Positions 12-36,548 of a DNA stretch of 46,616 bases are shown in pieces (position 1 is the stretch's first letter; every line of letters begins with the position of its first letter). The notes below the pieces were generated by a model. It saw only the letters and a list, made by a program, of their open reading frames with translations, was not told the origin of the DNA and did no database searches. The translations under genes and the position numbers were made by a program. Location: NCBI GenBank assembly GCA_018061205.1, contig JAGOUP010000001.1, forward strand, positions 1 through 46,616, written 5' to 3'. Source of the DNA: Candidatus Levyibacteriota bacterium. Lineage in GTDB: Bacteria > Patescibacteriota > Microgenomatia > Levybacterales > UBA12049.

Positions 12-78
12 TGTCATCCTGAACTCGTTTCAGGATCTTTTTGTATGGACGAGATTCCGAAATAAATTCGGAATGACA
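12..78 (+). repeat. double-hairpin mini-element, copy 1 (tgtcatcctgaa..ttcaggatc / attccgaaataaattcggaatgaca)
   Basis: Hairpin 1 atcctgaa-N5-ttcaggat, hairpin 2 attccgaa-ataaa-ttcggaat, terminal inverted tgtcat/atgaca. Ends 5 nt before the first CDS. Confidence 0.8.
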
Positions 79-1324: not shown

Positions 1325-3678
1325 TGGATGTAACAGCACTGATTAGTATGCTTTTTGGGTCTTTTTTTGGCATTATTGCTCTCATTGGGCTTTTTTGGGG
1401 AGGAGGGTATATCTTTTTGTTGTGGTATCGAAATCGCCATAGGGAACATGATGCGCTCCATTCTGTCATGCTTCAAATCACTATTCCTCGTGAAAATGAA
1501 ATCAAAATTGATGCTGCAGAACAGCTCTTTGCATCATTTGCCTCACTCGCCAAACATAGTACCTTTCATTTTTTACACAATCAACCACATATGTCTTTTG
1601 AGATAGTTGGTATGCCAGGAGAAATTCATTTTTATGCCAATGTGCCGAAGAAATTACAAGACTTAGTGGAAAAACAAATCAATGGTGCGTATCCTGATGC
1701 GGATATCCAAGTAGTTACCCCTAAATCTGTACAGCACAAAGAATATGTATTAGGTGATGAGTACAATATCTTTTCAGAAACTGGCCATGTCGCCTTTGCC
1801 TCTATGAAACTTAGTGGGCCAGATTATGCACCGATCAAAATGTATAAAGATTTAGCGGTTGATCCATTGTCATCGATTACCTCGGTTCTAGCAAAAATGA
1901 CTGAAGGCGAAGGAGCAGCTATTCAGGTTATGGTATCCCCAGCAGGGGATCACTGGAAACATAAAGGAAAAGAATATTTATCCAAAACGAAAAAAACAGA
2001 AGCAAATCCTGAAACAGCACATTACAACTCTGATGCAAAAGAATTGGAAGCAATTGAAAGCAAACTTTCAAAGCCAGGATTCAATGTCGTTGTTCGTATT
2101 GTCGTTTCATCAAGCACTCATGAAGCAGCTGAAGCACATTTGAATAACATCGAAACGGCATTCTCCCAATTTTCAGGTATCAACTCATTTACGCATAACA
2201 AACATTTTTTCAAAAGTCTTTTTATGACTGATTTTATTTATCGCTATATGCCCATGAGAGGGCAGACATCAGTGCTTTCTAGCGAAGAATTAGCAACTAT
2301 TTTTCATCTTCCCAACAAAAGTATTACAACGCCAAATATTGTGTGGATGACGAGTAAAAGAGCACCTGCTCCTGCACAAATTCCGACGTCTGGCCTCTAT
2401 CTCGGTAAGAGTACCTATCGTGGTTTTTCAAAACCAGTATTTATGAATCTGACAGACAGAAGAAGACACATGTATATTATCGGCAAAACAGGTACAGGAA
2501 AATCCGAATTTTTGAAAGATATGATTATGCAGGATATTAATGAAGGAAAAGGTGTTGCAGTTATTGATCCTCATGGAGATTTGGTAGAAGATATTTTACC
2601 GATGATTCCAACACAGCGTGCAGAAGATGTGATTTTGTTTGATCCCTCAGATGTTGCCAGGCCTTTGGGTATCAATATGATTGAAGCCCAGACAGAGGAT
2701 CAAAAACATTTGATTACGACATCAGTTATCGGACTTATGTACAAGCTTTTTGATCCGAATAAAACAGGTATTATCGGTCCTCGTTTTGAACATGCTGTTA
2801 GAAATGCTATTTTGACAGTTATGGCAGAACCGGGGAGTACGTTTATCGAAGTCATGCGGGTTTTGACTGATCAGAATTTTGTACAGGAGATATTACCAAA
2901 AGTGCAAGATCCGATTATTAGACGTTATTGGACAGATCAAATTGCACAAACATCAGATTTCCACAAATCTGAAGTCCTTGATTACATCACATCCAAATTT
3001 GGTCGATTTGTGACCAATAAAATGATTCGAAATATTATTGGTCAGTCTGAAAGTGCCTTTTCATTCAGACAAGTTATGGATGAAGAAAAAATCTTGTTAG
3101 TAAATTTAGCTAAAGGAAAAATAGGAGAGGAAAATTCATCCTTTTTAGGTCTTATTTTGATTCCAAAATTGCTTGTTGCTGCGATGAGTCGACAGGACAT
3201 GCCCAAAGATCAACGAAAAGATTTCTTCCTTTATGTTGACGAGTTCCAAAATTTTGCTACTCCTGATTTTGCTCAGATTTTATCCGAAGCCCGAAAATAT
3301 AAATTGAATTTAGTTGTTGCCAATCAGTTTATCGGACAAATGGAAGAAGAAATCAAAAATGCTATTTTTGGAAACGTTGGTACGATCTGTTCATTCCGAG
3401 TGGGTGTGACTGATGCCAATTATCTCCAACACGAATTCCAACCAACATTCACTGAAGTTGATTTGATCAACATAGATAAATATAACAATTACATCAAAAC
3501 TATCGTGAATGAAGAACCTGTTCCTCCATTTTCACTTGATTTAACTCGTGATATGAGCAAAGAAGCAGAAAAAATAAATCCTCGAGTAGCAGAGCTGGTT
3601 CGTGAACTCTCACGTCTCAAATACGGTCGAGACGTCGCAGTAGTCGACGCCGAAATAACCCAACGCGCTCGGTTATAA
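1324..3678 (+). CDS. membrane-anchored P-loop ATPase of the VirD4/TraG/TraD (coupling protein, FtsK/HerA-like) type
   Basis: About 784 aa. Hydrophobic N-terminus (LFGSFFGIIALIGLFWGGGYIFLLW), Walker A GKTGTGKSEF, Walker B-like FFLYVDEFQNF. The ORF-track start at TTG 1321 was moved to ATG 1324. Confidence 0.7.
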   Translation: MDVTALISMLFGSFFGIIALIGLFWGGGYIFLLWYRNRHREHDALHSVMLQITIPRENEIKIDAAEQLFASFASLAKHSTFHFLHNQPHMSFEIVGMPGEIHFYANVPKKLQDLVEKQINGAYPDADIQVVTPKSVQHKEYVLGDEYNIFSETGHVAFASMKLSGPDYAPIKMYKDLAVDPLSSITSVLAKMTEGEGAAIQVMVSPAGDHWKHKGKEYLSKTKKTEANPETAHYNSDAKELEAIESKLSKPGFNVVVRIVVSSSTHEAAEAHLNNIETAFSQFSGINSFTHNKHFFKSLFMTDFIYRYMPMRGQTSVLSSEELATIFHLPNKSITTPNIVWMTSKRAPAPAQIPTSGLYLGKSTYRGFSKPVFMNLTDRRRHMYIIGKTGTGKSEFLKDMIMQDINEGKGVAVIDPHGDLVEDILPMIPTQRAEDVILFDPSDVARPLGINMIEAQTEDQKHLITTSVIGLMYKLFDPNKTGIIGPRFEHAVRNAILTVMAEPGSTFIEVMRVLTDQNFVQEILPKVQDPIIRRYWTDQIAQTSDFHKSEVLDYITSKFGRFVTNKMIRNIIGQSESAFSFRQVMDEEKILLVNLAKGKIGEENSSFLGLILIPKLLVAAMSRQDMPKDQRKDFFLYVDEFQNFATPDFAQILSEARKYKLNLVVANQFIGQMEEEIKNAIFGNVGTICSFRVGVTDANYLQHEFQPTFTEVDLINIDKYNNYIKTIVNEEPVPPFSLDLTRDMSKEAEKINPRVAELVRELSRLKYGRDVAVVDAEITQRARL

Positions 3679-3771: not shown

Positions 3772-3843
3772 GCGTCTGTAGCTCAGTGGTAGAGCGCTAC
3801 TCTTATAAAGTAGATGTCCTTGGTCCGAACCCAAGCAGACGCA
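3772..3843 (+). tRNA. tRNA-Ile, anticodon UAU
   Basis: Hand-folded cloverleaf: acceptor gcgtctg/cagacgc, D arm gctc-agtggta-gagc, anticodon arm ctact-cTTATAa-agtag (34-36 = TAT), T arm cttgg-tccgaac-ccaag, discriminator A. CCA is not encoded. Confidence 0.8.
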
Positions 3844-3845
3844 CT

Positions 3846-4865: not shown

Positions 4866-5018
4866 GTGGTTCCCGCCATTAGGAGCACGCGTGAAGAAAA
4901 TGCAACGACTGAGCGTTAAGAAAATGGAACATTTTTAGTGAAGAAGGAAGTATTTTTAGCGCGCGCACGCTGGCGAATGCTTTTGGTACTTTTACGCTAA
5001 AAGTACAAGAAAGAAAAA
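4866..5018 (+). repeat. composite repeat family C, copy 1 (short form)
   Basis: gtggttcccgccattaggagcacgcgt ... gcgcacgctggcgaatg..ttttggtacttttacgctaaaagtacaagaaagaaaa. Shares both ends with the copies at 9558 and 21449. Confidence 0.8.
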
Positions 5019-6296: not shown

Positions 6297-6395
6297 TGTC
6301 ATCCTGAACTTGCTCCGCCTCGAAGTGGCCAGTCCCCTTGGGGGATTTCAGGATCTTTTTTACATTTAGATTCTTCGGTAAACCTCAGAATGACA
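6297..6395 (+). repeat. double-hairpin mini-element, copy 2, with a GC-rich expansion in hairpin 1
   Basis: tgtcatcctgaa...[ctccgcctcgaagtggccagtccccttggggg]...ttcaggatc ... cagaatgaca. Sits between the convergent guaB and add stops, so it may also act as a terminator. Confidence 0.7.
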
Positions 6396-6403
6396 AGTAT
6401 GAG

Positions 6404-9557: not shown

Positions 9558-9745
9558 GTGGTTCCCGCCATTAGGAGCACGCGTTAAGAAAATGTGACGA
9601 GTGAACGTCCCGTAGGGAAAAAGAGATAGGCGGAGCGAAACGCAGTGAGCGCAGTCCGTCTTTTTAGTGAACGAGGAAGCATTTTTAGCGAGCGCACGCT
9701 GGCGGAGGCTTTTGGACACTTTTGCAGTAAAAGTGTCAGAAAATA
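9558..9745 (+). repeat. composite repeat family C, copy 2
   Basis: Same termini plus a central gataggcggagcgaaacgcagtgagcgcagtccgtc module. Same orientation as the other copies. Confidence 0.8.
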
Positions 9746-11471: not shown

Positions 11472-11535
11472 GTCATCCTGAATTTATCCTTCGATATACT
11501 CAGGATCCTGAGCTTGCCGAATGGATTTCAGCATC
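11472..11535 (+). repeat. degenerate or composite copy of the hairpin elements
   Basis: gtcatcctgaa...tcaggatcctgagcttgccgaatggatttcagcatc. The tcctgagcttgccgaa hairpin appears nested inside a tgtcatcctgaa..ttcagcat element. Confidence 0.6.
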
Positions 11536-13505: not shown

Positions 13506-16331
13506 TCAAGAAAAAAGTTCCTTCATCGGCTTCTGCCAAGCCATCTTCAAATCTTCAAGCTTTACACTGAAAAGATTTTTGACTTCAATCGTTTTCTCTT
13601 TTTGTGTTTTACCCATCACCATATAGGGAATACCCTTAAACAAACCCTTAGCAACCCTTTCATTTGCTACTTCTACAACAAAACATCCTGCAGTTTCATT
13701 GAACAGTAGTTTCTCGGGATTTTTTTCTTTCAGAGTTATTGTTGCTCCCATTTCTCCACCAACACACATTTCAAAAATTGTGGTGATGATGCCTCCTTCA
13801 CTCACATCATGACATGAGAGGATTTTTCCATTACCAATTCCTTTATAAATACTGTTAAATAGTTGGGGTAATTTTTGTAGATCTGCTTTTGGTACTGATG
13901 TGCCCAGAGTTTTATTGATGTCATAATAAATAGAACCACCTAGTGAATCATCTGGTCTGCCGACGAGGCAGATAACAGAATCTGTTTTCTTGAAATCAGT
14001 AGTTTGTGTTTTTTGAATATCTTTTATTCTGCCAAAAGCAGCAATACCCAAAACAGGTGGAATTTTTAAAACCATGCCATCTTTTCCTCTATATGTTGAA
14101 GAAAGACTATCTTTTCCTGAAATGACAGGTGTGCCAAATGTTTTCATCAAATCAATCACTGCATCCACACTGCGATCAAGTGTCCACAGACTTTCTTCAT
14201 CAGGAAACGGCCACACATAATTATTTATCAGGGACGTCTCTTTATAGTTTCCTCCTACCGCCACCAGGTTACTGAGTGCTTCAACACCTGCCCATATACT
14301 GCCCCAGTATGGATCTATGTTATTTAAAATCGGATTGATACCATGAGAAACAATCATGCCATATGGTTTGTTGAGTAGGGGACGAATGACTGCTGCATCA
14401 TTTGGTCCATCCATTTTTTCTCCACTGTATGGTGCCACAATGCTCGTTCCTTGTACACTATGATCATACATGCGAACAATCGGTTCCTTCGAACAAACAT
14501 TCCCATGAGAAAGGATTTTTTCTACTGTGGTAATCCATTCTTTTTCTGTTTTTGGTCCCTTCGGCTCTCTTCCCTTAATTCGTAATTCGTAATTCGTAAT
14601 TCTTTTTGCCGTCATCTGTCTTTGTGGTAGTCCATGATGTAAAAATTCCATATCTAAATTACATACGACTTCTTTTTTATAGAGCACTTCGAGTTTTTTT
14701 GTTTTCGTAAATTCACCCAAGAGGGATACTTCGACATTATATTTTTTTGCCACTGTTTGAAATGCTTTTATTTTGTCCTTTGGAATTGCTAGAACCATAC
14801 GTTCTTGTGATTCAGCGACCCATATTTCCCAAGGAGACAGACCAGGATATTTTAATCGTTCATGTTCTAGGTGTACACGAATGCCAGTTGTAGCGCCGAT
14901 TTCACCAACAGCTGATGAGAGACCACCGCCTCCGCTATCTTGTATTGCTCTGATCAAATTTTTATCTCGTGCTTCAAGTATCAAATCAGCAACTCGTTTT
15001 TCTTCAATTGCATTTCCTATTTGTACTGCTTGAGCATTCACATTGATTGTTCTCTCAGTCATCTCTGCACTCGAGAATGTCGCACCATGAATGCCGTCTC
15101 TACCGACTCTGCCCCCTATGCTGATCACGACATCTCCAGGTTTTGGTTTTCCTATTTGTGCTGTTTTTTTAGGGAGTATACCATATGCACCAACGAGGAC
15201 TGTGGGTTTTGCTCGAAAATCATCGTGAAAATGAAATGAACCATTATTCGTTGGTATACCGATTCGATTGCCATAATCTCTCACCGCTGCAACTACTCGT
15301 TTTAAAATATACCGGGGAGGGAGACAGCCGGGAGGTAATGTCTCTGATGACAAATCAGGAGGAGCCAGACAGAAGACATCTGTTGAAACGAGTGTCTTAG
15401 CACCTTGTCCTGTTGCCATGACATCTCGGAATACACCGCCACTGCCAGTCATAGCACCACCGTATGGTTCAATAGCAGATGGAGAGTTGTGAGTTTCTGC
15501 TTTTCCGCAAATTGCATAGCCATCATAAAAATCCATAACACCTGAGTTGTCGACAAATGCTGAGACGATATGTTTTTTATGTTTCCATGCTTCTTTTTGA
15601 ATACGTTTAATAAACGGCATTTTGCTGTTTCCATCAACAGTGAGTGCTGCTTTAAATGTTTTATGCCCTGAATGTTCACTCCATGTTTGTGCAATTGTTT
15701 CTATTTCGCAATCAGTTGGGTCTCGTTTTAAATGTGAAAAATATGTTTGGATGACTTTTATTTCTTCTAAATTTAAAAAGAGTTTATCTTTGGAAAGTGT
15801 CAAAAGTTCATCATCACTCATATCCCGTAGTGGAATTGTTTCTGTTTTTCCAACACTACCTTTAATTACTAACGTTTTAGGATTTTCAGTGACGATATGT
15901 TCGACAAGTTTGTTGTAGAGGTTTAATTTTGTAATAATGTCGATGGTTTTTTCTTTGTTGACGCTTCCATAGAATCCATATTCACGACTGGTATCAGCAG
16001 CTAAAAGTTTGATGCCTAAATCGTTTGCTGCTTTGAGAATTGAAGCAACTTCAGGATTCATAACACCTGGTTTATATGCTATTTCGATGACTTCTCTTGC
16101 ATCAGTGATCAGTGGTGTGTCTATGGAATATTTTTGATTGATAGATTCAGCAAAAAGTGTTTGAGCCAAAATTTTTACTTGTGCTTTTTCTATCCCTTCA
16201 ACCCTGTACACTTTTGTCGTCTGTATTTTTTTTACATCCGTATTGTGCAAAAAATGTTGTATATCAGACAACACTCCTTCTCCCAAAAGATCCGGTCCTT
16301 TTACTGTTTGTACTCGAATTGTATGCACCAT
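13506..16331 (-). CDS. purL: FGAM synthase II with two N-terminal PurS-like domains (PurS-PurS-PurL fusion)
   Basis: 941 aa, against about 740 aa for a small PurL. Residues 1-75 and about 80-150 each resemble PurS. The core carries PurL blocks (ETHNSPSAIEPYGGAMTG, GKDSLS). Carries an in-frame heptamer-repeat insert. Confidence 0.85.
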   Translation of the reverse strand: MVHTIRVQTVKGPDLLGEGVLSDIQHFLHNTDVKKIQTTKVYRVEGIEKAQVKILAQTLFAESINQKYSIDTPLITDAREVIEIAYKPGVMNPEVASILKAANDLGIKLLAADTSREYGFYGSVNKEKTIDIITKLNLYNKLVEHIVTENPKTLVIKGSVGKTETIPLRDMSDDELLTLSKDKLFLNLEEIKVIQTYFSHLKRDPTDCEIETIAQTWSEHSGHKTFKAALTVDGNSKMPFIKRIQKEAWKHKKHIVSAFVDNSGVMDFYDGYAICGKAETHNSPSAIEPYGGAMTGSGGVFRDVMATGQGAKTLVSTDVFCLAPPDLSSETLPPGCLPPRYILKRVVAAVRDYGNRIGIPTNNGSFHFHDDFRAKPTVLVGAYGILPKKTAQIGKPKPGDVVISIGGRVGRDGIHGATFSSAEMTERTINVNAQAVQIGNAIEEKRVADLILEARDKNLIRAIQDSGGGGLSSAVGEIGATTGIRVHLEHERLKYPGLSPWEIWVAESQERMVLAIPKDKIKAFQTVAKKYNVEVSLLGEFTKTKKLEVLYKKEVVCNLDMEFLHHGLPQRQMTAKRITNYELRIKGREPKGPKTEKEWITTVEKILSHGNVCSKEPIVRMYDHSVQGTSIVAPYSGEKMDGPNDAAVIRPLLNKPYGMIVSHGINPILNNIDPYWGSIWAGVEALSNLVAVGGNYKETSLINNYVWPFPDEESLWTLDRSVDAVIDLMKTFGTPVISGKDSLSSTYRGKDGMVLKIPPVLGIAAFGRIKDIQKTQTTDFKKTDSVICLVGRPDDSLGGSIYYDINKTLGTSVPKADLQKLPQLFNSIYKGIGNGKILSCHDVSEGGIITTIFEMCVGGEMGATITLKEKNPEKLLFNETAGCFVVEVANERVAKGLFKGIPYMVMGKTQKEKTIEVKNLFSVKLEDLKMAWQKPMKELFS
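14576..14603 (-). repeat. 7-bp tandem repeat (attacga on the coding strand) x about 4 inside purL
   Basis: Coding strand aga att acg aat tac gaa tta cga att aag gga = RITNYELRIKG. Confidence 0.9.
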
Positions 16332-16336
16332 AAACT

Positions 16337-16364
16337 CTTAATTCGTAATTCTTAATTCGTAATT
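16337..16364 (-). repeat. 14-bp unit cttaattcgtaatt x2, filling the purD-purL spacer
   Basis: Same aattacgaattaag motif as in purL and at the purF start. Confidence 0.85.
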
Positions 16365-17716
16365 CATAAATTTTTCTCCAGCTCCCCCCATCCGATATCT
16401 GTTCGGAAATGTAAGTTATTCCCCTCAATATATATCATGGACATTGCTGCATACGCAAGTTGTCTTGCTTCTTTGATATCTTTTCCTTCAGCCATGACAT
16501 GAAAGAGTCTTCCTCCATTTGCAAAAAACTTCTTTCCTTTTCTTTTTACTCCGGCTCCATAGATTGTTACTCCAGAAATCTTCATAGCTTCTTCCAGTCC
16601 AAAAATTTCCTTACCAATTGTTTTTTTATAATCACCCGGATATCCAAATGAAACTCCACAGACACTCAATCGTTTTTTGTTATCGGACACAATTTTTAAT
16701 TTTGAAAGTTTTTTATGGATGACTGCGTTGACGATATCAACATAATCATTTTTGATAGCAGGAACTAATACTTCGGTTTCTGGATCTCCCCATCTTGCAT
16801 TAAATTCAATTACTTTGACACCGCTGGTTGTGAGCATGCCACCGAGATATAATACCCCTGAGTAAGGTCTATTTTCTTTTTGCATACCTATCATAAAAGG
16901 CTGCAAGATTTTTTCCTCCACTTCTTTTATGACGATTGGTGTAATTATTTGGGGATTTGATACACATCCCATGCCGCCAGTATTGAGACCTTTATTTTTG
17001 TTATACACTGTCTTATGATCTTGTGCAGATCCGATAATTGTATACTCTTTTCCATCGCACAGAGCAAAAAGAGAAAATTCTGAACCTTTGAGTTCTTGCT
17101 CTATAACAAATGTATCGCCTGATTTCCCAAACTCTTTCATTCCGTTGATGGCATCAATAGCTTGCTGTTTATTCTCAGATCGAATGACACCTTTTCCCCC
17201 AGCAAGACCTGCTGCTTTAATAAAAAGTACTAAATTTTTGTCATTCTGGAGCGAAGCGATAGAATCTTTTTTATATAACTTATTTACATAGGTTATTGCT
17301 TTGTTAGCATCCGAAAACGTTTCGTATTGTGGAATAGGCAATTGATATTTTTTCATAAAATCTCTCGCCCATGCTTTATCCCATTCTATTTGAGCGGCTT
17401 TTTTTGTTGGCCCAAAAGTTGCTATATTTTCCTCAGTAAATTTATCGACGTACCCTGCCCCTATGATGTCATCTTGAGAAACATCAACAAAATCTATCTT
17501 TTCTTGTTTACAGATTTTTAATACTGATTTAAAATCCCCAACAGCAACATCCGGATAATTTTTTATTTTTCTGTCAAGTCCTGAGCTTGTCGAAGGATTA
17601 TAATCAGTTAATCCGTTGCCGGGGATCATGATAATTTTTTTGACTTTCTTGCTCTTACTATATGCTTGGGCCAATGCATGTTCTCTTCCATTACCAGTGA
17701 GAATCAAAATATTCAT
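16364..17716 (-). CDS. purD: phosphoribosylamine-glycine ligase
   Basis: 450 aa. GNGREHAL, AAGLAGGKGV and ATP-grasp blocks. Two repeat-derived in-frame inserts. Confidence 0.9.
   Translation of the reverse strand: MNILILTGNGREHALAQAYSKSKKVKKIIMIPGNGLTDYNPSTSSGLDRKIKNYPDVAVGDFKSVLKICKQEKIDFVDVSQDDIIGAGYVDKFTEENIATFGPTKKAAQIEWDKAWARDFMKKYQLPIPQYETFSDANKAITYVNKLYKKDSIASLQNDKNLVLFIKAAGLAGGKGVIRSENKQQAIDAINGMKEFGKSGDTFVIEQELKGSEFSLFALCDGKEYTIIGSAQDHKTVYNKNKGLNTGGMGCVSNPQIITPIVIKEVEEKILQPFMIGMQKENRPYSGVLYLGGMLTTSGVKVIEFNARWGDPETEVLVPAIKNDYVDIVNAVIHKKLSKLKIVSDNKKRLSVCGVSFGYPGDYKKTIGKEIFGLEEAMKISGVTIYGAGVKRKGKKFFANGGRLFHVMAEGKDIKEARQLAYAAMSMIYIEGNNLHFRTDIGWGELEKNL
17239..17266. repeat. single-hairpin element variant inside purD
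   Basis: tgtcattctggagcgaagcgatagaatc. Translated in frame as DSIASLQND. Confidence 0.7.
17572..17598. repeat. tcctgagcttgtcgaagga hairpin inside purD
   Basis: tgtcaagtcctgagcttgtcgaaggat. Translated in frame as NPSTSSGLD. Confidence 0.7.
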
Positions 17717-19734
17717 AACGTAGATAATTTCTGCAACGCTTCAATGTAGAGAGCGTTTTCTTTCTTTTTTAAACGTGCATACAAAGAATCCACTGTGTCA
17801 TCTTTTTTTATTTTTTCAAATGTTCTACCCAACACAGGTCCAAAATCAACTTCTTTGGTGAGAAAGTGAATTGTCGATCCAGCATAGGTTGCACGATTAT
17901 CCAAAAAATTTTGTAGTGCTTTATTCGTGAACTTTTTTTTATTCCACAATCCTTTTGTTCCATCAGGATTTTTCACAACACCATCAATCGTATCGGGAAT
18001 GAGCCCTGGATGAAGATTAAGTATTTGATTGGAAAATATTTCTAATACCTCAGATGACAAAAATTGTTTCCATCCTGTGAGAACAATATAATCAACAGTG
18101 TGTTTTTTTAAAAGTTTTACTAGAGAACCTTTTTCTGTATTAATTTCTGTTGGAATACGATGTTTTTTTGCGCGAACGAGTCCAAATGCATCTTTCTCAT
18201 CACTGATAACCACAGCAATTTTAGCGTTAATTTTTTTATTTTCAATCCCATCAATAATTGCTTGCAAGTTTGTTCCGCTTCCTTTGTTTGAGACAAGCAC
18301 AGCAAGTCTTGGCTTATGAGAAAAAGTGGGAATGACCTGCATCACTTTTGCCCCTTTCAGTTTTTTGATATTACTTCCTATATCTATTGGATACTCTCCA
18401 GTAAAACAGGAAGTACAGAAAAGATCCTCTGGCAATTCAGTTGCGTTGATCAATCCTGACAGGGAAAGGTAATAGAGTGAATCAGCGCCAATAAAGTCTT
18501 TCACTTGCGTGACTGATCTGTGTGATGCAATGAGTTCTTTTTGTGTTGGCGTATTAATACCATAAAAATCAGGAAACTTGACGGGTGGACTGCTACTAAT
18601 GACATGCACTTCTTTCGCTCCTGCATCTCGCATCATCATCACGAGTTTTTTTGATGTTGTTCCCCTTACAATTGAATCATCAACCAATATTACTCGTTTC
18701 CCAGCAATAAGTTCTTTTATTGGATTGAGTTTCATTTGTACACTTCTATCTCGCATTTTTTGATCCGGCATAATAAAGGTTCTACCGATATATCTATTTT
18801 TTGTGAGTGCATGATCACAGGGAAGACCCAATGCTCTGGCATAACCTACTGCTGCAGGAATTGAAGAATCAGGAACTGGGATTACAACATCAGCTTTTAT
18901 CGGATATTCTTTTGCCAATTCTCTTCCTAAATTTTCTCGTACTTTATACACATTTTTTCCAAGCAACATACTATCAGGTCTCGCAAAATAAACCATTTCA
19001 AAAATATCGAGCTTTTGATTCGCCGTGGCAAATTGATATGAGTGGAGTCCTTTTTCATCAACTACTACCATTTCTCCAGGATTTACTTCTCGGATATAGG
19101 TTGCATTTACCATATCAAGCGCACATGTCTCAGATGCAAAAATATATCCACCGTTTAGTTTTCCAATACAAAGTGGCCTGATACCAAAAGGATCTCTTAT
19201 TGCTGCTAGTTTGTTTTTGCTCATAACCAGCATGGAATATGCACCTGTAAAAAGTGGAAGTGATTCTAAAATTGCATCTTCAAGGGTATATTTTTTAACC
19301 AAATAATACTTGATGAGCATATGCATCAGTTCTGAGTCATTGCTTCCTTTGATATGGATACCCAGTGTTGAAAGAAATCTCGCTAGTTTTGTTGTTGTTG
19401 GAAGATTACCATTATGAGCTAAAGCGATGCTATCGTTTTTGGTGACCACTGGTTGTATATGTTCTGGACTGGTTCCACCGGAGGTTGCATAGCGATTATG
19501 TCCAATTGCCATATCTCCTTTTAGTTTTTTCAGAACATCTTCAGAATAGACTTGTGTAACGAGTCCGGATCCTTTATGGAAAGACAACTGTTTTCTATTG
19601 CTGCTGACAATACCTGAACATTCCTGTCCTCTATGCTGCAATGCAAAAAGACCAAAATAGGTAAGCCTCGCAGCATCCATACCCTTTCCAAAAACTCCAA
19701 AAACCGCACACTTTTCCCTTAATTCGTAATTCAT
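17713..19734 (-). CDS. purF: bifunctional amidophosphoribosyltransferase / GAR formyltransferase (PurF-PurN fusion)
   Basis: 673 aa. N-terminal Ntn-GATase with CAVFGVFG after an 8-aa propeptide, PRTase loop VILVDDSIVRGTT, CTSCFTGEYP. The C-terminal ~195 aa show PurN blocks (SGTNLQAIIDGI, NLHPGLIP, GSTIHFLTKEVDFGPV). Confidence 0.85.
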   Translation of the reverse strand: MNYELREKCAVFGVFGKGMDAARLTYFGLFALQHRGQECSGIVSSNRKQLSFHKGSGLVTQVYSEDVLKKLKGDMAIGHNRYATSGGTSPEHIQPVVTKNDSIALAHNGNLPTTTKLARFLSTLGIHIKGSNDSELMHMLIKYYLVKKYTLEDAILESLPLFTGAYSMLVMSKNKLAAIRDPFGIRPLCIGKLNGGYIFASETCALDMVNATYIREVNPGEMVVVDEKGLHSYQFATANQKLDIFEMVYFARPDSMLLGKNVYKVRENLGRELAKEYPIKADVVIPVPDSSIPAAVGYARALGLPCDHALTKNRYIGRTFIMPDQKMRDRSVQMKLNPIKELIAGKRVILVDDSIVRGTTSKKLVMMMRDAGAKEVHVISSSPPVKFPDFYGINTPTQKELIASHRSVTQVKDFIGADSLYYLSLSGLINATELPEDLFCTSCFTGEYPIDIGSNIKKLKGAKVMQVIPTFSHKPRLAVLVSNKGSGTNLQAIIDGIENKKINAKIAVVISDEKDAFGLVRAKKHRIPTEINTEKGSLVKLLKKHTVDYIVLTGWKQFLSSEVLEIFSNQILNLHPGLIPDTIDGVVKNPDGTKGLWNKKKFTNKALQNFLDNRATYAGSTIHFLTKEVDFGPVLGRTFEKIKKDDTVDSLYARLKKKENALYIEALQKLSTL
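19718..19734 (-). repeat. aattacgaattaagg motif forming the first codons of purF
   Basis: ATGAATTACGAATTAAGGGAA = MNYELRE. A 19-nt match to the purL-internal copy. Confidence 0.8.
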
Positions 19735-19745
19735 AATACTTACCT

Positions 19746-19812
19746 TGTCATCCTGAACTTGTTTCAGGATCTAGTTTTATATATGAGATGCTGAAATAAA
19801 TTCAGCATGACA
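19746..19812 (+). repeat. double-hairpin mini-element, copy 3 (overlaps the purC 3' end)
   Basis: tgtcatcctgaacttgtttcaggatct-N13-agatgctgaaataaattcagcatgaca. Both arms are identical to the purK-internal copy. Confidence 0.9.
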
Positions 19813-20763
19813 GTTGTGAATGATTCTCTCCTCAATCGGATATGAAAATTTTTTGAACGTTTTTCCAGTGAGCTTTTCATAGACTCCTATATATCGTTTT
19901 GCTAGCGCAACGATGAGTTCTTGTGTCATCTTGGGAGGTTTTCCTTCTCCTGTATAGCCCTTGTTTGCATACCAGAGTCGCAAGAATTCTTTATCAAAGT
20001 TTTCTGGTTCCATCCCTTTTGCGATACGTTTTTTGTATGTTTTAGCGATCCAAAAACGAGATGAATCAGGGGTATGTATTTCATCCATCAGCATCAACTG
20101 ACCTTTTTCATCCAAGCCAAATTCATATTTTGTATCAACCAAAATTAGTCCTCGTTTTTCTGCCAGCTTGCTGCCAAAGGAAAAAAGCTCCAATGCTGCT
20201 TGTTCCATTTGTTCATATATTTTTTTACTAATGAGCTTTTTATCTACGATTTCTTTTTTTGTAAGTCTTTCATCATGACCATCTTTTCCTCCTCCATGTG
20301 TTGTTGGCGTGATAATAGGAGTTGGAAGTTTGTCATTTTTGTTGAGTCCATCGGGAAATGAAACGCCATAAATAGTTCTTTCTCCTTGTTGATAGGAATA
20401 CCAAATAGATGTTTTGGTAACGCCACTCATATATCCGCGAACAATCATCTCAATAGGTATAGGCGTGAGATTTCGGGCAATCGTCACATTTGGATCTGGA
20501 ACAGCAATCATATGGTTTGGGATGATATGTTTTGTTTTTGAAAACCAAAATGCGGCGAGCATATTGAGAACTGCGCCTTTATAGGGAATCGTTCCTAGCA
20601 CAAAATCAAATGCTGATTGCCTATCTGTTGTGATGATTATTCTTTTGTCGTTTTGTATATAGAAATCTCTGACTTTTCCTTGCTGTTTTTTTCCTGCACG
20701 TTTGAGGTCTAGTGTTTCTAAACAATTTGGTATGGTAGTAAGAATTGTTTTTGTCTGGAGCAT
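19777..20763 (-). CDS. purC: SAICAR synthetase
   Basis: 328 aa (long form). GKVRDFY, LILVDTKYEFG, DEIHTPDSSRFW blocks. The last 11 codons and the stop lie in a dispersed repeat. Confidence 0.9.
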   Translation of the reverse strand: MLQTKTILTTIPNCLETLDLKRAGKKQQGKVRDFYIQNDKRIIITTDRQSAFDFVLGTIPYKGAVLNMLAAFWFSKTKHIIPNHMIAVPDPNVTIARNLTPIPIEMIVRGYMSGVTKTSIWYSYQQGERTIYGVSFPDGLNKNDKLPTPIITPTTHGGGKDGHDERLTKKEIVDKKLISKKIYEQMEQAALELFSFGSKLAEKRGLILVDTKYEFGLDEKGQLMLMDEIHTPDSSRFWIAKTYKKRIAKGMEPENFDKEFLRLWYANKGYTGEGKPPKMTQELIVALAKRYIGVYEKLTGKTFKKFSYPIEERIIHNCHAEFISASHI

Positions 20764-20851: not shown

Positions 20852-21379
20852 TTACGTTTTCATCATTTTTGCTAAATATTTTTTATGTCCGTCTCTTTCT
20901 AAATTGTTTGATTTTTCAGTAATTGTTCGATCTAAATTTAGCATATATGCATTTATTGCGTCCATAAGATTTTTATCACTGATCGCGAGAATTTTTGCTG
21001 CCAAAATTCCTGCATTTTTTGCACCATTGATTGCCATAGTTGCAACAGGAATACCAGGTGGCATTTGTACAATTGAGAGGAGTGAATCCATACCATCCAG
21101 ACTTTTTGATTTTATGGGAACACCAATCACAGGGAGGGGAGTCAGTGATGCTGTTATACCAGGAAGATGTGCCGCGCCACCTGCTGCCGCAATAATTATT
21201 TGTAGTCCTCGTTCTTTTGCAGTTGTTGCATATGTATACATCCTTTTTGGTGTTCTATGTGCAGAAACGATAGTGACTTCGAAGGGGATAGAAAAGTCTT
21301 CAAGAATTGTTATAGCATCTTGCATGACAGGAAGATCTGAATCAGAGCCCATTATGATGCCAACAAGAGGAGTTGTCAT
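20852..21379 (-). CDS. purE: N5-CAIR mutase
   Basis: 175 aa. [19 protein letters not shown] and AGGAAHLPG motifs. A purK gene is nearby, so class I. Confidence 0.9.
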
Positions 21380-21448: not shown

Positions 21449-21654
21449 GTGGTTCCCGCCATTAGGAGCACGCGTTTATCCTGAGCTTGCCGAAGGATTA
21501 AAGAAATGTGTCGAGTGAGCGTGAAAAAAAGAGATAGGCGGAGCGAATGCATATGAGCGCAGTCCGTCTTTTTAGCGAACGAGAACACATTTCTAGCGAG
21601 CGCACGCTGGCGAATGTTTTTGGTACTTTTACGCTAAAAGTACAAGAAAGAAAA
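21449..21654 (+). repeat. composite repeat family C, copy 3 (with nested hairpin)
   Basis: Fills the purK-purE spacer and abuts the purK stop codon. Confidence 0.8.
21477..21498. repeat. tcctgagcttgccgaagga hairpin nested in composite repeat copy 3
   Basis: Present only in copy 3 of the 150-200 bp repeat. Flanked by TTA on both sides. Confidence 0.8.
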
Positions 21655-21656
21655 TT

Positions 21657-22859
21657 TTAGATACTAATTAGTCTTCTAGCTTTTTTTACTCTTTTCAAAC
21701 ATATTTCAAGTGATGGACCAATACTTGTTATATGTCCCATTTTTCTCTCCATTTTCGTTTCTGCTTTTCCATACATATGGATGCTGACTCCTGGGATTTT
21801 GAGAGCTTCTTCTAGTCCTTTTATTTTTGCTGTTCCATTTCGTTCTCCTAAAATATTTATCATCACAGCAGCAGGGGTTTTCATGAGAGTTCTCCCTAAC
21901 GGTAAACCTGTTACTGCCCGAATATGTTGTTCAAACTGTGATGTGATAGATGACTCTATCGTTACATGGCCACTATTATGAACTCTGGGTGCAATTTCAT
22001 TCACCAAAATTTGAGCTTGCCCTGAGCTTGTTGAATGAGTCAGGAACATCTCTATTCCAAAAACACCTGCACCTTTGAGGTGCTGCATTACTTTTTTTGC
22101 CAAGCTTTCGGCTTTTTTGCTGAGTGGTTTACTGATAGGTGCTGGAGCGAGTACTGTTTGTAAAATATTATTTTTGTGAATCGTTTCAACAACAGGAAAT
22201 GTTTTGATTTTACCAGTGAGACTTCTGACTGCAATAATCGCCAATTCTTTTTCAAAGGGGATAAATTTTTCAACATACAACTCATTACCTTTCAGTTTTT
22301 CTAACCCTTTTGTAATATCATTTTGAGTTTTAACAACAAAATTTCCCCTCCCATCATAAGCACCAGTTTTTGCTTTAAGGAGGAAAGGATAATTGATTCT
22401 CTTTGCTATTTTTTTGATGTCATCCTGAACTTGTTTCAGGATCTCTACATTGCTTTTTTTAGATGCTGAAATAAATTCAGCATGACAAGAAGGTATGTCC
22501 ACAAATTCAGCAACAGGAATTCCTGCTTTTTTCAGAAAGACTTTTTGTTCATATTTATCTTTTATCATTCGGAGTGTTTGCGGAGAAGGGTTCACTGTAA
22601 TCCCTTTTTGTTTTATTTCTTCCAAAAGCTCCGGGTTGGCCAATTCCCAGTCGAAAGTCATAAAGTCTGAAAGATGTGCCAATTCCCACATTGCTTTTTC
22701 ATCATTTAAATCAGCAACAATCTGTTTATCCGCGAGTTGTCCAGCAGGTGATTTTGGTGTCGGATCCAAAATTGTAACGGTAAAACCTAGGTGTTTGGCA
22801 GAAGGGATCAGCATACGGGCGAGCTGTCCACCACCAACAATACCTATTCTATTTTTCAT
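21657..22859 (-). CDS. purK: N5-CAIR synthetase
   Basis: ATP-grasp fold. IGIVGGGQLARML, AKTGAYDGRGNF, NEIAPRVHNSGH. Start moved to ATG 22859 (MKNRIGIVGGGQ). Contains a 70-bp repeat element read in frame. Confidence 0.9.
   Translation of the reverse strand: MKNRIGIVGGGQLARMLIPSAKHLGFTVTILDPTPKSPAGQLADKQIVADLNDEKAMWELAHLSDFMTFDWELANPELLEEIKQKGITVNPSPQTLRMIKDKYEQKVFLKKAGIPVAEFVDIPSCHAEFISASKKSNVEILKQVQDDIKKIAKRINYPFLLKAKTGAYDGRGNFVVKTQNDITKGLEKLKGNELYVEKFIPFEKELAIIAVRSLTGKIKTFPVVETIHKNNILQTVLAPAPISKPLSKKAESLAKKVMQHLKGAGVFGIEMFLTHSTSSGQAQILVNEIAPRVHNSGHVTIESSITSQFEQHIRAVTGLPLGRTLMKTPAAVMINILGERNGTAKIKGLEEALKIPGVSIHMYGKAETKMERKMGHITSIGPSLEICLKRVKKARRLISI
22011..22042. repeat. degenerate gagcttg-type hairpin remnant inside purK
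   Basis: ttgagcttgccctgagcttgttgaatgag. Translated as HSTSSGQAQ, the same STSSG frame as in purD. Confidence 0.45.
22418..22487 (+). repeat. double-hairpin mini-element, copy 4 (entirely inside purK)
   Basis: tgtcatcctgaacttgtttcaggatct-N16-agatgctgaaataaattcagcatgaca. Read through in frame. Confidence 0.9.
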
Positions 22860-24258: not shown

Positions 24259-24848
24259 AAAACGTTTACGCCGAATTTTTTTAGCGATGGGATGATTTTA
24301 CTCAATGGTAATCCCACTACATTATAGAAATCTCCATCAATATGTTCAAGGAGTACTGCCCCAATTCCTTGGACACCATACCCTCCTGCTTTGTCCATTG
24401 GTTTTTCTATTTTGAGATATGTTTTTATTTCTGCATCACCCAGTTTTCGAAAGGTAACTTTTGTTTCCACAGAATCGGTATGTGTTTTTTTGAGTTTATT
24501 ATCCAAAAGGGTAAAACCAGTGATAACACTATGTGTTTTTCCTTGCAGTTTTTTTATCATACGTCGAGCATCATCCATATTTCTTGGTTTACCCAAAATC
24601 TCTCCCTTACTATCTATAATCGTATCAGCTGCGATGATAATAGCATCTGGATATTTTATTGCCACCGTTTGCGCTTTTTCTAAAGAAAGCTCTTCTGCTT
24701 GGCCTTTTGGTTTGAGTCGAGGATTGAGTTTTTCCTCGATATTACTTGGGACAGTCGTAAAAGATAATCCTATTTGTTCCAAAAGTTTTTTCCGTCTCGG
24801 TGATTGCGATGCTAAAATAATCTGCCTCATATCTTTCTCCCTTGTCAT
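24255..24848 (-). CDS. maf: Maf-like nucleoside triphosphate pyrophosphatase
   Basis: 197 aa. ILASQSPRRKKLL, IIAADT, KAGGYGIQ-like (KAGGYGVQG) motifs. The first ATG lies in a repeat hairpin, so ATG 24830 (MRQIILASQSPRR) is an equally good start. Confidence 0.85.
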   Translation of the reverse strand: MTREKDMRQIILASQSPRRKKLLEQIGLSFTTVPSNIEEKLNPRLKPKGQAEELSLEKAQTVAIKYPDAIIIAADTIIDSKGEILGKPRNMDDARRMIKKLQGKTHSVITGFTLLDNKLKKTHTDSVETKVTFRKLGDAEIKTYLKIEKPMDKAGGYGVQGIGAVLLEHIDGDFYNVVGLPLSKIIPSLKKFGVNVL

Positions 24849-24869
24849 CCTGAACTTGTTTCAGGATCT
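24843..24869. repeat. solo hairpin 1 (tgtcatcctgaacttgtttcaggatct)
   Basis: Exact 27-nt match to hairpin 1 of the composite element. Overlaps the first ATG of maf. Confidence 0.85.
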
Positions 24870-25669: not shown

Positions 25670-25738
25670 AGTTCATTGTAAATATTATTTATATATATTA
25701 AATTCTTCTATTTCGTTTGCATTGAGAGAGCAAGGTAA

Positions 25739-25825
25739 GTACTTTTTGAGAATTGTCAGGGGGATTCCTCGGCCCGAAGGGATCGAGGAGGGGGTAAACT
25801 CACCCGACTAATTCTCAAAAAGTAC
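25739..25825. repeat. 87-bp element with 16-bp perfect terminal inverted repeats and a GC-rich core
   Basis: gtactttttgagaatt ... aattctcaaaaagtac. The core contains tcctcg-gcccgaagggat-cgagga. Single copy in this window. Confidence 0.7.
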
Positions 25826-25859
25826 GCCCCATTCTTCTTTCACAGCAAACATGTTTTGC

Positions 25860-25880
25860 GCTACTTTACGCTAAAGTAGC
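25860..25880. repeat. hairpin gctacttta-cgc-taaagtagc
   Basis: Lies 28 nt downstream of the purA stop. Same loop (cgc) and core as gtactttta-cgc-taaaagtac in family C. Confidence 0.75.
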
Positions 25881-25907
25881 TATAAGAAAATCATCTGTGG
25901 TCGATAA

Positions 25908-27234: not shown

Positions 27235-27262
27235 TGTCATCCTGAACTTGTTTCAGGATCTC
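27235..27262. repeat. solo hairpin 1 (tgtcatcctgaacttgtttcaggatctc)
   Basis: Exact match. Lies in the purA/dnaG divergent intergenic region. Confidence 0.85.
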
Positions 27263-32684: not shown

Positions 32685-32712
32685 TACAATGTACAATGAA
32701 GAATGTATAATG
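32685..32712 (+). repeat. 7-bp tandem repeat (tacaatg-like) x4 across the start of the four-helix-bundle gene
   Basis: tacaatg tacaatg aagaatg tataatg. Confidence 0.8.
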
Positions 32713-33077
32713 AGGGGACGGAAAATAGGACTTTTGATATTCGACAACGAAGCTTTCAATTTGGAGTAAAGATCGTTCTTTTTATTAGAACCTTTCCAAA
32801 AGATACGGCAGGGTTTGCTATTGGAAATCAATTGATACGTTCTGGAACTTCAGTGGGAGCAAATATTGAAGAAGGACAAAATGCTAGTAGTCGAAAGGAT
32901 TTTATTCATTGTTTGACTATTTCCTTAAAAGAAGCAAGAGAAACTGAATATTGGTTGAAGATAATTCAAGAAACGAAATTAATTATACATGAAGATTTGG
33001 TAGGACTTTTACAAGAGATTAACGAATTAATTAAAATATTGACAACAATTATTAAAAAATCCAAGGAAAAATTGTAA
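32703..33077 (+). CDS. four-helix-bundle protein (23S rRNA intervening-sequence protein family)
   Basis: 124 aa. Family blocks QLIRSGTSVGANIEEG, KDFIHCLTISLKEARETEYWL. Flanked by GTACA-type repeats. Confidence 0.8.
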   Translation: MYNEGTENRTFDIRQRSFQFGVKIVLFIRTFPKDTAGFAIGNQLIRSGTSVGANIEEGQNASSRKDFIHCLTISLKEARETEYWLKIIQETKLIIHEDLVGLLQEINELIKILTTIIKKSKEKL

Positions 33078-34302: not shown

Positions 34303-35064
34303 CTATAATCTACTATTATTAAAATAATGGCTCCAATCTCCATCATGAAATTCATTTAAGACCATACAAATATCTATACCAAAATCGTTTTGTATGTATA
34401 CCCACACACACTTTATTTCCGGTACATCTATGCCTTCTGGAAATAATTTCTTAAAATCCTCATATTTCGCTTCTACTTGTAAATCTATTTGTATAAGAGG
34501 TGTAGATGATTTTGAAAAAGAAACTATTTCAATTTTTGGTCTTCTGATTAAATCATAATTTACTTCTCCGCTCTCGATTTCTTCTTTTGTCCCAGGAAGT
34601 ATAAAATCCCAAGGTTCATCAGCAAGTTCCTTAGGAAAGGTATGATAGAGACAAGTCTCTTTTAGCTTTTCTCTCAGTTCAAGTATTTGAGGATGAATGC
34701 CGCCAAAATATGGGAGATTAAAACCAGTATGATCGACAGCTTTTAATAATAGATCTTTAGCTCTATTAAGATACTCGTCCATAGCTATATGTTTATATTC
34801 ATGTGGACTTTGTTTCGTAATGCCAGTTACATTTGTTATATCTACAGAAAATGAAGAGTTATCACTAAAATTAAAATGTACTTGCGGAATCTGTCTCTCT
34901 GAAAAAGAAAATTTTGTTGAAGGGCTATATGTGTTTTCTGAAAGATTTAGTCTTAATTCTTCATTTTCTACATTTCCTAGATGAGACAAGTAATCAAGAA
35001 AGGATTTAGTAAATTCTTTGTTTTTGTTTGGGAGTTTGTAGAGTACATCTATTAAATATTTCAT
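34303..35064 (-). CDS. hypothetical protein, paralogue of 45820..46584 (possibly VOC/glyoxalase-like fold)
   Basis: 253 aa, highly similar in protein and nucleotide sequence to the ORF at the window end. VDHTGFNLP and IQIDLQVE are weakly reminiscent of VOC metal-binding strands. Start overlaps the upstream kinase gene by 4 nt. Confidence 0.6.
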   Translation of the reverse strand: MKYLIDVLYKLPNKNKEFTKSFLDYLSHLGNVENEELRLNLSENTYSPSTKFSFSERQIPQVHFNFSDNSSFSVDITNVTGITKQSPHEYKHIAMDEYLNRAKDLLLKAVDHTGFNLPYFGGIHPQILELREKLKETCLYHTFPKELADEPWDFILPGTKEEIESGEVNYDLIRRPKIEIVSFSKSSTPLIQIDLQVEAKYEDFKKLFPEGIDVPEIKCVWVYIQNDFGIDICMVLNEFHDGDWSHYFNNSRL

Positions 35065-36032
35065 TGTTTGATTGTGGTAAATTGTAAACCAATTCTTCCA
35101 AGATTTAAGAAATATTCATTTTCTTTTGTTTGATTACCATTCACTTTTTTTTCATATGTCGCACCAAGCAAATGCATAGCATGAGCTACTTGGCAATATA
35201 AAGGTAAAATTTCTAACTCTATCTTTTCCAATGGAATATATTTTTGATATTCATCTAGTGTTTGTTTGTAAAGATCCTCATACTTATCTAAATTTTTTGT
35301 GTCAAAAAACACATCACACATCAATACTGCAATTTCTTGTATTCGTGGATAACAGTTTGCTACGGAAAAATCGAGGATATATAAATGGTCATTTTTATCT
35401 CGCATTATATTAGTTTTGATTAAATCTCCATGCACAAAACAATGTGGTAAATCATCTGTATTGATTTGCCGAAATTTTTCTATTAATGGATGAACTAATT
35501 TTTTATCTTCTTCAGTAAGATATTGCATCTTTTTTCCTGCTTCTGCCAAGAAATTAACTATAGCCCAACTATCATAAATTGATGAAGGTTTTAATGAAAT
35601 TTGATTTATTTTTGCTGCCTGCTCTATCAGAAAAAGAGCTTCTTTTTGTGTCAATATTGTAGGAGTATCAAATAATGTCCATCCATCAATATAGTGCATA
35701 ACAATAAGTCTGATTGGGTTACCATCGATAATGGTTTCATATATATAATTTTGATATCGTGTAGGATACACTTCAGGCTGTTCAACTCCCGAATATTTTG
35801 CTCGTTCTAGTATCTCTACATACCGCTCGCAGTCTGATTTATCTCTAAATGACGCAAAGATTTTTACAAAAAACTTATGATGACTTGTTTCAACAACTAC
35901 ATTTAAATCCTCATAACCCATTTCTACTATAGAGTGTGACTTGTATGAACCATGGTTGTAGTTCTCAAACGCTTTCGTCAAAATAGGGGCGAGATCACCC
36001 TCATAGCCAATACGAGATTGTATGTTAATCAT
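35061..36032 (-). CDS. APH/choline-kinase-family phosphotransferase
   Basis: 323 aa. Catalytic loop HGDLIKTNIM and metal-binding ILDFS, typical of the aminoglycoside phosphotransferase / homoserine kinase II family. Confidence 0.75.
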   Translation of the reverse strand: MINIQSRIGYEGDLAPILTKAFENYNHGSYKSHSIVEMGYEDLNVVVETSHHKFFVKIFASFRDKSDCERYVEILERAKYSGVEQPEVYPTRYQNYIYETIIDGNPIRLIVMHYIDGWTLFDTPTILTQKEALFLIEQAAKINQISLKPSSIYDSWAIVNFLAEAGKKMQYLTEEDKKLVHPLIEKFRQINTDDLPHCFVHGDLIKTNIMRDKNDHLYILDFSVANCYPRIQEIAVLMCDVFFDTKNLDKYEDLYKQTLDEYQKYIPLEKIELEILPLYCQVAHAMHLLGATYEKKVNGNQTKENEYFLNLGRIGLQFTTIKQ

Positions 36033-36047
36033 GAAGCTAGTATAGCA
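36033..36047 (-). promoter_or_regulatory. extended -10 tgctatact, 6 nt before the kinase ATG
   Basis: Minus-strand reading tgctatact-agcttc-ATG. Back-to-back with the divergent promoter at 36060. Confidence 0.55.
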
Positions 36048-36059
36048 TCTATTTTTGAG

Positions 36060-36074
36060 TGCTATAATCAGCTT
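36060..36074 (+). promoter_or_regulatory. extended -10 tgctataat, 6 nt before ATG 36075
   Basis: tgctataat-cagctt-ATG. The same box is duplicated at 39668 and 44193. Confidence 0.55.
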
Positions 36075-36548
36075 ATGAAGGAATCTAAATTTGATTGGAG
36101 AAAATACATAGAAGAAGCATTATCAGCTACAGAGTATTGCAGCTTAGCTACAGTGGATGAAAAAGGAGTGTGGTCAAATCCTGTCTATTTTGCTTGGGAT
36201 GAAAAATATAATCTGTATTTCATTTCCCAAATGCATTCTCGTCATATGCAGAATATAAAAAGGAATAATCGGATAGCAGTATCTATCTATAAAACAGAAC
36301 AAAAAGGTGATGTACTTGGTATACAATTGGAAGGTAGAGCAGAAATTTTAACAGGAAAAAAAGAAGCAATGAAAAAAGCGTTCGATATTTATTTTGCCAG
36401 AGCGGGGAAAGGTAAAGACCAAGAAGAATATATGACTAACCCTACTTGGCATTTTGTTAAAATTACTCCTGAACATATCTACTATTTCGACACCAATTTT
36501 TTTGAGGAAGAAAGGCAAGAAGTACCATTGCAAGAGCTAATAAACTGA
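36075..36548 (+). CDS. pyridoxamine 5'-phosphate oxidase-like FMN-binding protein (general stress protein 26 type)
   Basis: 157 aa from ATG 36075. The ORF-track extension back to 35952 overlaps the divergent kinase gene and its promoter. Split-barrel-like pattern CSLATVDEKG...NPVYFAWDE...LYFIS. Confidence 0.65.
   Translation: MKESKFDWRKYIEEALSATEYCSLATVDEKGVWSNPVYFAWDEKYNLYFISQMHSRHMQNIKRNNRIAVSIYKTEQKGDVLGIQLEGRAEILTGKKEAMKKAFDIYFARAGKGKDQEEYMTNPTWHFVKITPEHIYYFDTNFFEEERQEVPLQELIN

Follow-up and report, generated by a model that had tools for sequence, protein, structure and literature searches.

We show that one unit, 23 net bases long, has been inserted into copy 3 of a lineage-specific intergenic repeat (family C) in a 46.6-kb stretch of Microgenomates DNA, hereafter the window. 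The 19-mer within this insert is probably the core of a REP-type unit, a G·A/A·G-interrupted variant of the CGTC/TGTC superfamily that colonises this genome, and the unit probably moved as a single-stranded hairpin without duplicating its target. We argue that the inserted entity can be one unit and that no target duplication is made in the process. The repeat is of a known kind, and the case is a clean illustration rather than a surprise. We found no earlier report for a candidate-phyla-radiation lineage: a literature search for REPs in Patescibacteria or the candidate phyla radiation returned nothing relevant, and a bioRxiv text search gave no match to the motif itself.

The window is densely coding (37% G+C), and its purine and guanine genes form a cluster with synteny to two relatives, designated L099 and L157. 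By its PurD homologues the organism belongs to Microgenomates (Daviesbacteria/Levybacteria-like), with the nearest relative at 68-71% protein identity. The three copies of family C and the insertion are located as follows.

4866..5013, forward strand: family C copy 1, with an empty site at 4885-4902 that reads GCACGCGTGAAGAAAATG
9558..9745, forward strand: family C copy 2, with an empty site at 9577-9594 that reads GCACGCGTTAAGAAAATG
21449..21650, forward strand: family C copy 3, with the filled site, between purE (20852-21379, reverse strand) and purK (21657-22859, reverse strand)
21475..21497, unstranded: net 23-nt insertion relative to copies 1 and 2, placed equally well at 21476-21498 or 21477-21499

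The strings that the earlier note quoted for the three copies are letter-exact (4885-4902, 9577-9594, and 21479-21497). Copy 3 reads GCACGCGTTTA-TCCTGAGCTTGCCGAAGGA-TTAAAGAAATG, with the 19-mer TCCTGAGCTTGCCGAAGGA at 21479-21497. When the family C copies are aligned (n = 3), a 5′ block of 24 nt is identical in all of them, and the extra segment is confined to copy 3. An empty copy-3 allele would read GCACGCGTT joined straight to AAAGAAATG. Relative to copy 2, the insert measures 23 nt net rather than 22 (19 + 3), and its position slides by 2 nt (TT), leaving its ends not base-exact. Outside the window, family C-like elements of two other Microgenomates (L099 17075-17262 and L107 4440-4625, both on the reverse strand) align with the window copies and have an empty site. 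Because the paralogues (n = 2) and the outgroup homologues (n = 2) are all empty, the difference is an insertion and not two deletions. The earlier claim of a discrete 19-bp insertion therefore holds for the insertion itself and fails for its length. A single filled/empty comparison at nucleotide resolution underlies this reading; judged from the aligned sequences, the copy 3 segment is a genuine insertion into the family C repeat.

Could the unit instead be ancestral to family C, with copies 1 and 2 having lost it by slippage between TTA repeats across the hairpin? Short direct repeats around a palindrome favour precise deletion, and copy 2 keeps one TTA. However, copy 1 has TGA rather than TTA, and the empty sites of the related elements in other genomes mean that the unit would have had to be lost precisely and independently three or four times or more, whereas a single gain in copy 3 is far more economical. 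We therefore consider an ancestral unit very unlikely. The same two elements speak against secondary deletion in copies 1 and 2, which the earlier note had named as an outcome that would overturn its proposal.

In both syntenic relatives (L099 and L157), the purK-purE spacer is short (67 and 129 nt) and has no family C element, so that all of copy 3, too, is specific to this lineage. The family C 5′ core had no matches in genome_contigs and metagenome_contigs, and an exact-protein purE search for more copies returned one identical 1.6-kb contig, which was uninformative.

Several further features of family C were observed. A fourth, diverged copy lies at about 25700-25890, and all four copies fall inside the purine/guanine gene cluster. 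Syntenic spacers of the relatives are without copies 1 and 3. The orientation of the copies relative to neighbouring genes is inconsistent, their predicted helices show a few compensatory changes, and they have no Rfam match. A 3′ module, TTTTGGTACTTTTACGCTAAAAGTAC, occurs in the window at 4980-5006 and 21617-21643, at L104 4937-4964, and in loci L105-L108; a Saccharibacteria MAG and JGI contigs contain it with 100% conservation, downstream of unrelated sequence that is strongly self-complementary, and it had no matches in IMG/VR. Copy 2 retains the hairpin of this module via compensatory changes (GACACTTTT...AAAAGTGTC).

The insert belongs to a set of similar units that are dispersed across the window. 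Near-copies of the 19-mer are found at 17579 (1 mismatch) and 11506 (2 mismatches), and the number of matches with up to 3 mismatches in the window is 3, versus 0.00 expected. The canonical unit of the window is TGTC-ATCCTGAA-CTTGT-TTCAGGAT-CT, with the close variants ATGCTGAA-TTTAT-TTCAGCAT and ATTCCGAA-..-TTCGGAAT. The 46.6 kb hold 4 tag-outward dimers, 2 canonical singles, and 5 further sites of CTGAG...CGAAG type, including 21478-21498. The units described in the text are the following.

21478..21498, forward strand: REP-type body ATCCTGAG-CTTGC-CGAAGGAT, with 8-nt arms, a 5-nt loop, and G·A/A·G at arm positions 6-7
12..78, unstranded: TGTC-tagged dimer, tags outward
6297..6396, unstranded: dimer, tags outward, its left unit with a 34-nt insert in the loop
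6369-6396, reverse strand: right unit of the preceding dimer, CTGAG...CGAAG type, TGTC-ATTCTGAG-GTTTAC-CGAAGAAT-CT, with a TCT tail
11475..11532, forward strand: nested element, an inverted CTGAG...CGAAG pair in the loop of a ATCCTGAA...TTCAGCAT hairpin
17239..17267, forward strand: second TGTC-tagged unit in purD, TGTCATTCTGGAGCGAAGCGATAGAATCT, encoding DSIASLQND
17572..17600, forward strand: TGTC-tagged unit TGTCAAG-TCCTGAGCTTGTCGAAGGA-TTA, in frame inside purD (gene on the reverse strand), encoding PSTSSGLD
19746..19812, unstranded: TGTC-tagged dimer, tags outward, its right unit forming the last residues and stop codon of purC
22020..22041, forward strand: degenerate unit in purK, encoding HSTSSGQ, absent from the L099 orthologue
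22418..22487, unstranded: TGTC-tagged dimer, tags outward, CHAEFISASKKSNVEILKQVQDD, wholly in frame in purK
24843..24869, forward strand: canonical unit, single, TGTCATCCTGAACTTGTTTCAGGATCT
27235..27261, forward strand: canonical unit, single, identical to the unit at 24843

Units of the window dimers are spaced 13-16 nt apart, and identical units occur with differing dimer spacers. Every related unit in the window starts with A and ends with T (ATCC...GGAT, ATGC...GCAT, and ATTC...GAAT). Units nested in the loops of other units lie at 6297-6355 and 11475-11532.

In the inserted body at 21478-21498, pairs 1-5 and 8 of the arms ATCCTGAG/CGAAGGAT are standard and pairs 6-7 are G·A and A·G; the energy model scores only a 5-bp stem. 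The hairpin of the motif alone is weak (5-bp stem, 11-nt loop, DNA −1.7 kcal/mol, z about 0) and no better than shuffled sequence. In the same model, canonical units fold well (z = −3.0), as do dimers (z = −5.9). The loop is CTTGC; sister copies have CTTGT, which is the loop of canonical units. The body has no proper tag: its left flank is GCGTTT, in which GTTT or CGTT, each one base from GTTC/CGTC, is partly host sequence. Its tail is TA/TTA rather than CT/CCA, and it is a singleton, not a dimer. We file 21478-21498 under the family body, as a copy whose tag is missing or degenerate, rather than among the canonical units. One candidate explanation, that the 4-nt tag is a pre-existing target (the insert lies directly after CGTT, and 23 nt is the canonical 27-nt unit minus the tag), is contradicted by purD, whose tag lies inside the inserted 24 nt. 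An extended stem drawn from the flanks is present in some copies and is not general, with no extension in 48 of 94.

Units of the superfamily also lie within genes of the purine pathway. The 19-mer copy at 17579 encodes PSTSSG inside an 8-residue PurD insert, and most homologues lack the insert. In purK, the dimer at 22418-22487 adds 24 residues in frame (CHAEFISAS...EILKQVQDD), and at the same site the L099 orthologue holds a different single unit. The C-terminus and stop codon of purC are unit-derived in the window; L099 and L102 instead carry units in another purC loop. The window, the L099/L102 clade, and L101 all carry an insert at one and the same purD codon boundary, with matching orientation and frame. 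The inserts of the window and of L099/L102 probably stem from one event, because the 3′ part CAGGRCTTGRCAG is common to both. The L101 insert has a different 3′ part, and the sister of L101 is empty, so that this boundary has seen at least two gains or several precise losses. Between contigs with identical PurD, we found no presence/absence polymorphism (L099/L100 and L102/L103 are 100% identical). We show that separate lineages acquired units of this superfamily by insertion, in spacers, within loops of other units, and, in frame, at surface loops of purine enzymes. Their in-frame presence in purD, purK, and purC, together with their nesting in one another, shows that the superfamily is clearly insertion-prone.

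The genes with REP-added peptides of 8-24 residues are purD (16364-17716), purK (21657-22859), and purC (19777-20763). For annotation, this means that REP units add junk peptides of this length (PSTSSG, CHAEFISAS, EILKQVQDD, and DSIASLQND), and even C-termini, to candidate-phyla-radiation proteins, where they disturb alignments and gene calls.

Beyond the window, 97 IMG/VR stretches contain the 19-mer (N at position 12); on its left they share the conserved sequence CCG(C/T)TC(A/G), and conservation on its right is poor. Among 94 IMG/VR copies, the tag is CCG(C/T)TC(A/G), with CCTC and TGTC variants. The 19-mer is also present in proteobacterial plasmids and replicons, with many copies per replicon in Comamonas and Sphingobium, and in Sinorhizobium. 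The canonical 19-mer is found in 29 IMG/VR stretches, on contigs of 28-71% G+C. An exact 25-mer, GTCATCCTGAACTTGTTTCAGGATC, is shared by Sphingobium, Novosphingobium, and Sphingomonas replicons; at the Sphingobium locus that we inspected, it carries a CGTC tag and a CCA tail. A tag-outward dimer resembling those of the window was found in Treponema saccharophilum. Exact REP cores of 19-25 nt are common to Alpha- and Betaproteobacteria, Spirochaetota, Bacteroidota, the candidate phyla radiation, and viral-classed contigs (IMG/VR loci L002-L153 and plasmid hits H1-H43, from genomes of 28-71% G+C), which is unusual conservation for selfish repeats.

Across copies, the arm pairs beside CTGAG/CGAAG covary (TC/GA, CC/GG, TT/AA, and TG/CA). 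The exact conservation of the interrupted stem across phyla suggests that its G·A/A·G mismatches matter. A related observation is noted in the discussion of Di Nocera 2013 (PMC3733652): RAYT cleavage of Escherichia coli REP DNA was abolished when mismatched residues at the loop edge were paired. Exact conservation and covariation would also fit a functional module that was selected in copy 3 and is not selfish DNA, such as a stem-loop in a family C transcript that binds a protein or RNA. Yet within enzymes the motif lies in frame and is so oriented that it yields the harmless peptide PSTSSG; its location with respect to genes is not consistent; copies 1 and 2 manage without it; and it has no Rfam match. 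A selected module in copy 3 is thus highly improbable. In Rfam searches of the window at gathering score, of the copy-3 region at E ≤ 10, of the relatives' loci, and of 14 motif-bearing IMG/VR loci, neither the hairpin nor family C was covered, and the sole match, to STnc410 at 19 bits, is noise. A hammerhead-like ribozyme core (CUGAG...CGAAG) was rejected by inspection, since the motif lacks the UGA and the A of the CUGAUGA...GAAA core and Rfam offers no support.

The earlier note had explained the insert by a transposition-like event of a very small element that duplicated TTA; this would correspond to a cut-or-copy, MITE-like element moved by a DDE-type or similar transposase. TTA does abut the 19-mer on both sides, and only one TTA is present at the site in the empty copy 2. 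For a fixed 19-nt stretch, only 2% of window positions show a flanking 3-nt direct repeat; when the boundaries may shift by ±2 nt and the length may range over 17-23 nt, the share of positions is 42%. When 2- to 4-nt repeats were scored at all boundary pairs, the best case was found in 10 of the 94 copies versus 4.7 expected, an about twofold excess of a 3-nt repeat at these boundaries that consists mostly of TCA...TCA. However, about 90% of the 94 other copies have no flanking repeat at any offset, and neither do the tag-outward dimers of the window. Independent copies with a right-hand TTA (the purD site, L022-type, and L027-type) have AAG, TTG, or TCG on their left, and the right-hand TTA of purD is the complement of host codons (TAT AAT / TTT AAC).

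The composition of the triplets also argues against a duplication. Since A opens and T closes every related unit, the first stem pair takes up one base of each triplet, the A on the left and the initial T on the right, and the flanks that remain once this pair is removed are TT and TA. Given a net insert of 23 nt rather than 22, a duplication of TTA would require one extra indel and, in the right flank, two substitutions. MITEs consist of an internal segment bordered by distinct terminal inverted repeats, usually exceed 50 bp, and make regular duplications; the short duplications among them are TA for IS630/Tc1-like elements such as Correia and TNA for some IS5-group elements. The window units resemble MITEs in being small, non-autonomous, dispersed, and sometimes nested, but they lack distinct terminal inverted repeats, a length above 50 bp, and a regular duplication, and the copy 3 insert has no terminal inverted repeats besides its hairpin. 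A TTA-duplicating transposon is therefore unlikely. The idea that a duplicated TTA marks transposition is not supported by the survey of 94 non-redundant copies, which show no consistent duplication at any tested boundary. We infer that the TTA triplets are not a footprint, each contributing one base to the stem and the rest being A+T-rich host or tail sequence, and a flanking TTA is not a dependable sign of transposition.

The reading that we prefer, a REP-type unit, places the insert in a published superfamily. CGTC-tagged REPs are defined, in the text of PMC3733652, by a CGTC tag (often TGTC or CCTC), an 8-9 bp stem that almost always starts with complementary A/T, a 4-5 nt loop, and a short tail; they form mostly tags-outside dimers and include intragenic copies. 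The body at 21478-21498 agrees in its 8-nt arms, which start with A-T and T-A, and its 5-nt loop; its sister units in the window agree in the TGTC tag, the short tail, the tag-outward dimers, and the in-frame intragenic copies. Exact sequences are shared with Sphingomonadaceae and other genera that PMC3733652 lists in its text. The body differs in having no proper tag, a TA/TTA tail, and two non-Watson-Crick stem pairs. Its assignment to the CGTC superfamily draws on the written definition and on exact sequence shared with the genera listed, and the supplements of PMC3733652 hold no sequence matching the motif. Candidate-phyla-radiation hosts are absent from both the 2013 CGTC survey (PMC3733652) and the 2025 RepRanger survey. 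According to the text of the 2013 survey, no dedicated transposase was found for these REPs (Di Nocera, De Gregorio & Rocco 2013, PMC3733652), and the window likewise has no linked transposase. The very small mobile element nested in a repeat that the earlier note proposed is thus recovered as a member of a dispersed, insertion-prone family, though not as a new transposon.

REP/REPIN-RAYT systems (PMC3116915; PMC6006769) are similar in having short hairpins with a 5′ tetranucleotide and inverted doublets that fold into one long hairpin, and single-strand, duplication-free movement has been proposed for them (Bertels & Rainey 2011, PMC3116915; Quentin et al. 2018, PMC6006769). In contrast to those systems, the window tags are TGTC/CGTC-like rather than GTAG/GTGG, the doublet spacers are not conserved, and no RAYT gene was seen in the window. 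Moreover, REPIN theory holds the doublet to be the replicative unit and singlets to be immobile remnants, whereas family C copy 3 received one unit of 21-23 nt. Among Rickettsia palindromic elements, RPE-4 and RPE-6 are described as CGTC-type in the text of Di Nocera 2013 (PMC3733652). Like these elements, which lie in frame in housekeeping genes and are tolerated in surface loops, the sister copies here lie in purD, purK, and purC. The classic RPE-1 differs in its length of 100-150 bp, as opposed to units of 21-29 nt and dimers of about 70 nt here, and in belonging to another phylum.

Cyanobacterial SDRs, said to have been described by Elhai et al. in 2008, reportedly have units of 21-27 nt with nested copies, their mobility having been argued from filled and empty sites, and were reportedly confined to one subgroup of (heterocystous) cyanobacteria. 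By this description, the window resembles them in unit size, in nested units (6297-6355 and 11475-11532), and in tandem heptamer repeats in the same genome.

We propose that the unit would travel as a single-stranded hairpin and that its placement would leave the target unduplicated. This step could be carried out in trans by an HUH/Y1-type nuclease, which is the proposal for REP/REPIN and IS200/IS605, or by another enzyme. A Pfam scan of 30 ORFs revealed no transposase or Y1_Tnp within the window, the remaining ORFs being purine and guanine genes, and no IS200/IS605 TnpA or RAYT was found within the window.

The unit could also have been copied into place by recombination or repair, either by gene conversion from another REP, which would keep the family alike, or by template switching at a fork primed by TT/TTA microhomology. 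The 2-nt TT ambiguity of the insert is typical of microhomology junctions, and 21478-21498 is without the tag that the nuclease would need. Different units occupy one purK loop in the window and L099, and one purD boundary is filled in separate lineages, both of which are expected if conversion overwrites resident units; identical units with unlike dimer spacers are likewise in keeping with it. But the window holds no donor of the same sequence (the GCC variant flanked as here), conversion requires a pre-existing homologous target that the empty copies do not show, and spread to many unrelated sites would still require an insertion step. We regard copying of this kind as a somewhat unlikely alternative to duplication-free hairpin movement.

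We conjecture, with considerable doubt, that single CGTC-type REP units of 21-27 nt, and not only dimers, are still inserting in candidate-phyla-radiation genomes of about 1 Mb; they would do so with no dedicated transposase and would show some site preference, since the same purD codon boundary has been struck in separate lineages. If so, these units would be among the smallest active mobile DNAs, and such gene-poor genomes would be the place to identify which enzyme or host process carries CGTC REPs from phylum to phylum. On how CGTC-tagged REPs multiply, a filled/empty pair of a single unit, resolved to the nucleotide, is a small but useful datum, and so are the in-frame inserts, specific to single lineages, that essential purine enzymes carry in a bacterium with a minimal genome.

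Other features of the window were recorded alongside the repeats. Tandem heptamers (AATTCGT, 3-4 copies, and CACAAAT, 4 copies) lie at 14567-14598, 16330-16361, 19711-19742, and 220-263, with one AATTCGT set in frame inside purL (14567-14598); the spacers of relatives contain other heptamers, GGTTCACAG and AATTACG. A gene for a 23S_rRNA_IVP / bAvd-like four-helix bundle is present in the window (32703-33077), in L099 (4288-4635), and in L157 (2597-2944); it adjoins purA in both relatives and is flanked by short repeats, TGTACA-rich in the window and GGTTCACAG in L099. On the reverse strand, a single ORF at 17713-19734 fuses PurF (amidotransferase and phosphoribosyltransferase) with PurN (formyltransferase). 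The same fusion occurs in L157, purN is separate in L099, and other relatives fuse purN or purC to neighbours. A tRNA-Ile with anticodon TAT, uncommon in bacteria, lies at 3772-3844. Two paralogous pairs with 77-85% DNA identity (34303-35064 / 45820-46584 and 35952-36548 / 39689-40108), one encoding a protein of unknown function without a Pfam match and one a PNPOx-like protein, are found near Fic, NUDIX, and AadA-like genes and a gene resembling a T4SS coupling protein (1321-3678).
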